Below, one piece after another: positions 6,610-7,019 of a stretch of 45,294 bases of DNA (its first letter is position 1; each line of letters starts with the position of its first letter). The notes below the pieces were generated by a model, which did not search any database, was not told where the DNA came from, and saw only the letters and a list, made by a program, of their open reading frames with translations. The position numbers and the translations under genes are program-made. The stretch comes from Escherichia phage vB_Eco_AMO_3701M, in sequence record PQ474795.1; one strand, written 5' to 3'.

Positions 6610-7019
6610 ATGAATCTTAAAGCAACTGTCGTAGCAGGAGCATGTTTCATCATCCTGGCTTACGCACACGGCATCTACCAGTACCGCAGCTGGCTGGAAC
6701 GAAGGCCAGCGCGAATCTCGTTTCGCAGCAACAGCAGAAAGCACAGGCTGAGTTAGCGAAGAAAACACAACGGCAGCAGCAGGACGAATCAAAGGCCGCC
6801 GCCGCTGACAACGAAGGCAAGACGAAATCAGAGGTGATTACCCGTGAAGTCGTTAAGTACATTAAAACGCCTGGTCGCAGCGTGTGCACTTTTGACGATG
6901 CTCGCGTCCTGCTCAAGTCCCGCGCCGTCGCCAACGCCAATTCCATCTCCGGATACGACGATGATGCAGCCACCGTGCAAGCTGGCGCACGCCAAGTAGT
7001 GACGCGGACGAGGACTTAG
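6610..7019 (+). CDS. i-spanin, Rz-like (frame change near 6700)
   Basis: AAAGGAG RBS; N-terminal TM helix VVAGACFIILAYAHGIY then Q/K/A-rich coiled coil; fragments 6610..6756 and 6642..7019. Confidence 0.7.
6844..6999 (+). CDS. o-spanin, Rz1-like lipoprotein embedded in the +1 frame of Rz
   Basis: GTG 6844 with GAGGTG RBS; lipoprotein signal ending LAS-C; mature part Pro-rich SSPAPSPTPIPSP; entirely inside the Rz ORF. Confidence 0.7.
   Translation: MKSLSTLKRLVAACALLTMLASCSSPAPSPTPIPSPDTTMMQPPCKLAHAK

Follow-up and report, generated by a model that had tools for sequence, protein, structure and literature searches.

The Rz/Rz1-like locus of the window (the whole 45,294-nt stretch of DNA that was analysed) is very probably the standard two-component spanin of the K1G/Jersey-like siphophages (Guernseyvirinae), broken here by assembly errors. 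A spanin pair of overlapped architecture that is split from the holin–endolysin cassette is already catalogued for this phage group. There is thus little new biology in the locus, and its practical value lies in annotation: one Nanopore indel can make an overlapped spanin pair look embedded and can split an intact i-spanin into two open reading frames (ORFs). The initial annotation had proposed an Rz/Rz1-type pair, and this identity is supported by PHROGs matches to both genes and by spanin annotation in relatives, though the assignment remains a predicted one, drawn from topology signals, gene arrangement, and family annotation. We found no published experimental test of spanin function for the Jersey/K1G family. 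Feature coordinates are collected in Table 1.

Table 1. Features of the spanin locus, its surroundings, and the lysis cassette (positions in the window).
Feature	Coordinates	Strand	Basis or remark
Hoc-like Ig head decoration gene	5672..6091		Upstream of spanins
Palindrome AACTATTCGAATAGTT overlapping TTGACT, 17 nt, TG-extended TAAGCT (TTGACT-17-TGnTAAGCT)	6343..6385	+	Read from sequence; conserved in relatives
Intrinsic-terminator-like hairpin GCCCCGC-TTTATG-GCGGGGC, then TTTACTT	6566..6585	+	Ends ~20 nt before i-spanin ATG; lies between endolysin and Rz
Other terminator-like hairpins between endolysin and Rz	4165-4184, 6095-6115	+	
Rz-like i-spanin gene	6610..6999	+	128 aa without the three inserted bases; alignment with intact relatives
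Predicted N-terminal TM helix of i-spanin, residues 5-23, ATVVAGACFIILAYAHGIY	6622..6678	+	Kyte-Doolittle
Insertion 1 (T)	6691	+	Absent from 8/8 relatives; shifts i-spanin frame after residue 27
Insertion 2 (C)	6710	+	Absent from 8/8 relatives
GAGG Shine-Dalgarno-like element	6831..6834	+	9 nt 5' of o-spanin GTG; read from sequence
Rz1-like o-spanin gene	6844..7108	+	GTG start, TAG 7106-7108; 87 aa without base 6989
o-spanin lipoprotein signal peptide	6844..6912	+	Lipobox L-A-S-C 6901..6912 (Cys23), Ser at +2
Insertion 3 (A), in Rz/Rz1 overlap	6989	+	Absent from 8/8 relatives; restores Rz to original frame
Spurious 3' extension of frame-0 ORF 6642..7019	7000..7019	+	Outside i-spanin of every intact relative
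Scaffold gene	7191..7892		Downstream of spanins
Terminase	1424-2676		Example of a frame-split gene
Portal	2689-4159		Example of a frame-split gene
Major capsid	7895-8946		Example of a frame-split gene
DNA polymerase	29418-31628		Example of a frame-split gene
Holin-like gene 1	42969..43278	+	phrog_2359; frameshifted near 43175-43181, two frames by tblastn
Holin-like gene 2, intact	43271..43543	+	phrog_2508, E = 3e-33; one piece by tblastn
Endolysin, T4-lysozyme type, frameshifted	43521..44009	+	PF00959 (Phage_lysozyme), phrog_7/phrog_33703; two frames by tblastn; example of a frame-split gene

The window belongs to a Kagunavirus-like group of the Guernseyvirinae. A megablast search with 6300–7300 returned Escherichia phage M01 (OR061069.1; 45,294 bp) at the same coordinates, together with >300 Kagunavirus and Jerseyvirus records. 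Between 6605 and 7115 the window and OR061069.1 are identical (zero substitutions), so that the spanin finding applies to the deposited M01 sequence. Positions 6590–7200 were aligned with M01 and with the intact sequences of eight relatives (fEg-Eco06, Bas76, K1G, K1ind1, CR01, UTEC10, RP180, and SZH-1), and the pair was judged by the spanin criteria that Summer et al. (2007) and Kongari et al. (2018) set out. The latter study (BMC Bioinformatics 19:326, PMC6139136) places Jersey, SETP3, SETP13, K1G, K1H, and K1ind1–3 in one i-spanin and one o-spanin family of the overlapped class. For Jersey it also gives genes that “overlap by 155 bp,” constant Cys45 and Cys67 in the o-spanin, and an i-spanin with poly-Q stretches, in which two helices are predicted with a beta-containing linker between them.

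The i-spanin gene had been read as one intact ORF spanning 6610..7019, which fails on length (410 nt, not a multiple of three) and on the frameshifts that interrupt both spanin genes of the window. As sequenced, the gene passes through frame 1 (6610–6690), frame 2 (6692–6709), frame 0 (6711–6988), and again frame 1 up to a TAG at 6997–6999. Specifically, the ATG at 6610 opens a 48-aa ORF that encodes the transmembrane (TM) helix and then unrelated residues before a stop at 6754–6756, and the conserved periplasmic part lies in another frame, within an ORF at 6642..7019. The stop of this second ORF (7017–7019) belongs to a frame used for neither spanin in any intact relative. The true i-spanin stop is the TAG at 6997–6999, the same codon that ends the lipoprotein ORF as sequenced. 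Neither frame is therefore intact in the window: the i-spanin ORF already ends at 6756, and only 51 aa of the o-spanin are read before the stop at 6999.

Once the inserted bases are removed, the i-spanin matches its family over its full length (PHROGs phrog_2536, “Rz-like spanin,” E = 1.3e-54). The N-terminal TM helix expected after the ATG at 6610 is borne out by a Kyte–Doolittle 19-residue maximum of 1.72 at residues 5–23; this single N-terminal TM domain is conserved in the eight relatives. Cys92 is the one periplasmic cysteine of the protein. A single-sequence AlphaFold2 model of the periplasmic fragment places helices at fragment residues 2–51 and 61–75, at low confidence (mean pLDDT 58, pTM 0.26). 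The poly-Q periplasmic domain may be largely helical, and the coiled coil of the initial annotation is only putative.

The lipoprotein ORF at 6844..6999 (+) was found as first described: it starts with GTG, encodes 51 aa (MKSLSTLKRLVAACALLTMLASCSSPAPSPTPIPSPDTTMMQPPCKLAHAK), and has its lipobox LAS-C at Cys23. A basic n-region and a hydrophobic core precede the lipobox, and Cys23 is followed by CSSPAPSPTPIPSP; the signal peptidase II site is predicted after MKSLSTLKRLVAACALLTMLAS, with the Cys followed by Ser (i.e., no Asp at +2). The mature part is indeed Pro-rich (36% Pro across its first 28 residues). A rule-based lipoprotein-signal filter, applied in all six frames to ORFs ≥40 aa long with any start codon, passed this ORF alone in 45 kb, and 20 shuffles of the window yielded a mean of 0.1 such ORFs. 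The Shine–Dalgarno-like stretch CAGAGGT(G/A)AT is kept in the eight relatives. PHROGs searches matched the o-spanin to phrog_5672 (E = 4.6e-30) and phrog_1267 (E = 9.5e-19), and tblastn recovered the full 87-aa protein in frame in 110 phage records, with conservation of the C-terminal half reaching Jerseyvirus and Dhillonvirus-like phages. Together, Cys45 and Cys67 of the o-spanin and Cys92 of the i-spanin provide periplasmic cysteines for disulfides.

The corrected i-spanin is 96.1% identical to the Rz of fEg-Eco06 and CR01, and the corrected o-spanin is 100% identical to the fEg-Eco06 reading. The Jersey families are delimited at ≥40% identity over ≥40% of length, and the i-/o-spanin pair shares, over full length, 89.8%/89.7% identity with K1G (Rz/ORF6) and 64.1%/61.3% with SETP13.

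The initial annotation regarded the o-spanin gene as embedded in the i-spanin gene. This architecture is not what the intact relatives have: in all eight, a 128-aa Rz is accompanied by an 87-aa Rz1 in the +1 frame, with a GTG start and GAGG upstream, an overlap of 155 nt, and an Rz1 end 109 nt past the Rz stop. The o-spanin lipobox in these relatives is LASC (Cys23) or LSAC (Cys22), in each case with Cys45 and Cys67 (8/8). The K1G and K1ind1 records carry both genes in just this form, labelled “overlapping gene,” and Kongari et al. (2018) assign Jersey/K1G to the same arrangement. When base 6989 is removed from the window, the same arrangement returns, with the o-spanin in the +1 frame and a 155-nt overlap. 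The embedded appearance thus arises from the 1-nt insertion at 6989, which shifts the o-spanin onto the i-spanin TAG and leaves the frame-0 ORF open as far as 7019, combined with the wrong-frame stop at 7017–7019. The embedding is an artefact, and the architecture in the true sequence is overlapped.

Compared with other Jersey-family spanins, the pair is alike in its 155-nt overlap, its o-spanin Cys45/Cys67, its poly-Q i-spanin, and its site between the Hoc-like and scaffold genes, and it is unlike them only in the three frame-breaking 1-nt insertions of the window, most likely sequencing errors. With lambda Rz/Rz1 it shares a predicted type II inner-membrane protein and a +1-frame outer-membrane lipoprotein, a Pro-rich o-spanin, and periplasmic cysteines. 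However, lambda Rz1 lies wholly inside Rz, whereas this o-spanin runs 109 nt past the i-spanin; and Rz/Rz1 of lambda follow directly after S and R in one cassette, whereas here the pair lies ~8 kb from the endolysin. The PseT.3/PseT.2 genes of T4 are likewise unlinked to holin and endolysin (Kongari et al., 2018, Figure 8 legend), but they have a “separated” architecture without overlap. A Pfam scan of corrected and as-sequenced products gave nothing above threshold (best matches weak and unrelated, E ≥ 0.015; DUF2514, E = 0.037), and the pair is thus a predicted functional analogue of lambda Rz/Rz1 and not a detectable homologue.

That lack of a Pfam match, and the odd position among head genes, could be taken to mean that the lipobox ORF arose by chance within a membrane/coiled-coil protein of the head module unrelated to lysis. 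We consider this highly improbable, given that the ORF is the sole one with a lipoprotein signal in 45 kb against 0.1 expected, and that the +1-frame ORF, GTG, Shine–Dalgarno element, lipobox, and two cysteines are kept in 8/8 relatives, even where the lipobox is shifted by one residue. The reach of the conserved C-terminal half to Jerseyvirus and Dhillonvirus-like phages argues the same way, as does the membership of both proteins in PHROGs lysis families. Nor does the genome offer a rival: the lipobox scan found no other spanin candidate in the 45 kb, and no second or unimolecular spanin near the endolysin, where frameshifts could hide one.

A spanin pair broken in its reading frames then raises the question of whether the three insertions, carried alike by the window and the M01 record, belong to the phage or to its assembly. 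We judge them almost certainly sequencing or assembly errors, because the genome is Nanopore-only at ≤21x, frame breaks occur genome-wide, and the relatives are free of the insertions. According to the source paper, the M phage was sequenced by MinION alone, and Flye assembly at a coverage of no more than 21x gave a circular contig of 45,294 bp. The M01 record is labelled “partial genome” and holds 104 CDS, compared with 76–85 in relatives. At least 13 of 20 conserved fEg-Eco06 proteins are split between frames in the window, among them both terminase subunits, portal, major capsid, the tail tip protein, two helicases (with the helicase-primase among the frame breaks), DNA polymerase, a nuclease, one holin, and the endolysin. 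Against fEg-Eco06, over 32.6 kb of alignment, M01 shows 140 frame-breaking indels (length not divisible by three), of which 104 are single bases, and against Bas76 it shows 126. In the control pair, Bas76 and fEg-Eco06, there are 28, roughly a fifth of the M01 counts. CR01, from the same study and laboratory but covered 248x, has an intact i-spanin ORF without the three insertions.

Mutants of lambda Rz/Rz1 still lyse in laboratory media low in divalent cations. Spanin loss may on these grounds be tolerable, and the deposited record does contain the same bases, such that M01 could be conceived as a natural variant in which the i-spanin is inactivated, the 51-aa lipoprotein is truncated and truly embedded, and lysis proceeds without a working spanin. 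This is very unlikely: with terminase, portal, major capsid, DNA polymerase, and helicase-primase all broken in frame, a phage could not form plaques, and the fivefold excess of frame-breaking indels over the control pair comes from a genome sequenced by Nanopore only at ≤21x. The truncated product would, moreover, lose Cys67 and the conserved C-terminal helix. Least probable of all, to the point of near dismissal, is that ribosomal frameshifting or transcriptional slippage yields the i-spanin by programmed frame changes. While the insertions sum to +3 and the first and last segments share one frame, neither a slippery heptamer nor a homopolymer is present at any of the three insertion sites, none of the eight relatives has the interruptions, and ~100 comparable 1-nt indels are spread across the genome; programmed frameshifting was rejected on these grounds. 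Sequencing or assembly error is the reading that we retain.

The spanin genes were confirmed to lie in the head module, between the Ig-like and scaffold genes and apart from holin and endolysin. The distance first given, 36 kb, does not hold on the circular map: the endolysin and the i-spanin are on the same strand and 45294 − 44009 + 6610 = ~7.9 kb apart, the larger figure having arisen from where the circular contig was opened. The endolysin lies upstream of the i-spanin by this distance in the window, by 8.0 kb in Bas76, and by 8.9 kb in fEg-Eco06 (with an intein insertion), and the same gene order is found in fEg-Eco06, Bas76, K1G, K1ind1, and SETP13. In fEg-Eco06, Bas76, K1G, and SETP13 the spanins are likewise set apart from the lysis cassette. 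The proposed split of the lysis function is real as a separation but not novel, being known in this phage group: PMC9825357 states it for Kagunavirus fBC-Eco01, and it can be seen in the K1G GenBank record (GU196277.1). It is plausible that the spanins are transcribed apart from the lysis cassette, since three terminator-like hairpins on the + strand lie between endolysin and Rz.

Spanins serve to disrupt the outer membrane during lysis, and how this pair would act can be proposed by analogy with the lambda Rz/Rz1 model. The o-spanin would be cleaved and lipidated at Cys23 and, with Ser at +2, would be sorted to the outer membrane, from where, across the periplasm, its C-terminal helix may bind the i-spanin of the inner membrane at that protein's C-terminus. 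Disulfides via Cys45 and Cys67 would hold the complex together as disulfide-linked multimers. After removal of the peptidoglycan by holin and endolysin, such complexes would be expected to bring about fusion of the inner with the outer membrane.

Directly upstream of the i-spanin ATG lies a non-coding stretch of ~280 nt (6330–6609) with, in order, an operator-like palindrome, a promoter-like site, a foldable RNA, and a strong terminator-like hairpin. The perfect 16-bp palindrome occupies 6343–6358. Of the promoter-like sites upstream of the spanin genes, the one found closest to them is at 6343..6385; like the other promoter-like sites given here, it was read by eye and lacks statistical support, and a strict sigma-70 consensus scan of 5600–7600 returned no promoter. 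About 200 nt of the element fold better than shuffles (z = −2.75), its central hairpin occurs in two forms that both pair, and the stem of the hairpin at 6566..6585 is invariant in 15 phages. Between Escherichia Kagunavirus and Salmonella Jerseyvirus the stretch is well kept: it is 94.3% identical to Salmonella phage SETP13, compared with 73% for the i-spanin-only part of the flank, 68% for the overlap, 77% for the o-spanin-only part, and 83% for scaffold. It is present over ≥80% of its length in 179 phage records, nearly all matches being 90–99% identical. An annotated 38-aa ORF within it (6398..6514) has its N- and C-terminal reading altered by 1-nt indels among relatives.

Searches for a known RNA gave no Rfam match (6000–7300 at E up to 1; whole window at gathering scores) and, with ARAGORN, no tRNA or tmRNA. 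RNAalifold on 15 copies of the element predicted 64 pairs with 0 compensatory changes, the sequences being too similar to speak for or against a structure. It is conceivable, though we hold it to be rather unlikely, that the element works as a regulatory gate in the manner of lambda pR'-6S RNA-tR', or as an sRNA, and that by terminator read-through or antitermination it sets the timing of spanin and late head gene expression independently of holin and endolysin.

Two further sets of repeats were seen in the window. There are exactly two copies of the motif ATGTTGGAATAA-N-Y-TATTC (6332–6350 and 7118–7136; 0.05 expected by chance), both with TTGAC after them. The two copies bracket the spanin cassette, one 5' of the block of conserved RNA and spanin genes and one just before the scaffold gene. 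A promoter- or operator-like repeat, TGAATAGT-N3-CTATTAT(A/T), lies on the + strand at 4505–4551, 6255–6301, and 16023–16069, with a poor −35. Its core motif recurs in the opposite orientation at 28732, 32371, 35548, 35601, and 39045, there in a good TTGACA-17-TATAGT context. To judge from their sequence, these repeats resemble a binding site for a regulator common to early and late promoters.

Among the close relatives, the o-spanin lipobox (residues 18–24) exists in two registers, LLTMLAS-C (Cys23) and LLTLSA-C (Cys22), and the Cys predicted to be lipidated is retained despite the changed end of the signal peptide within the i-spanin/o-spanin overlap. Annotation of the gene varies among the relatives examined: the full 87-aa o-spanin from GTG is annotated only in K1G and K1ind1; in the good-quality relatives fEg-Eco06, Bas76, UTEC10, and SETP13 it is annotated from an internal ATG as 47–48 aa, without signal peptide or lipobox; and in CR01, RP180, and SZH-1 it is unannotated.

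The M01 record annotates neither spanin gene and places on the minus strand, across the broken i-spanin, a 72-aa “hypothetical protein” CDS (6574–6792) that looks like a gene-caller artefact of the frameshifts. Over the full length, the window and OR061069.1 share their indels yet differ by 3,204 substitutions (7.1%); all differences are substitutions, mostly at third codon positions, and their density is very uneven, from 0 per kb to 247 per kb by stretch.
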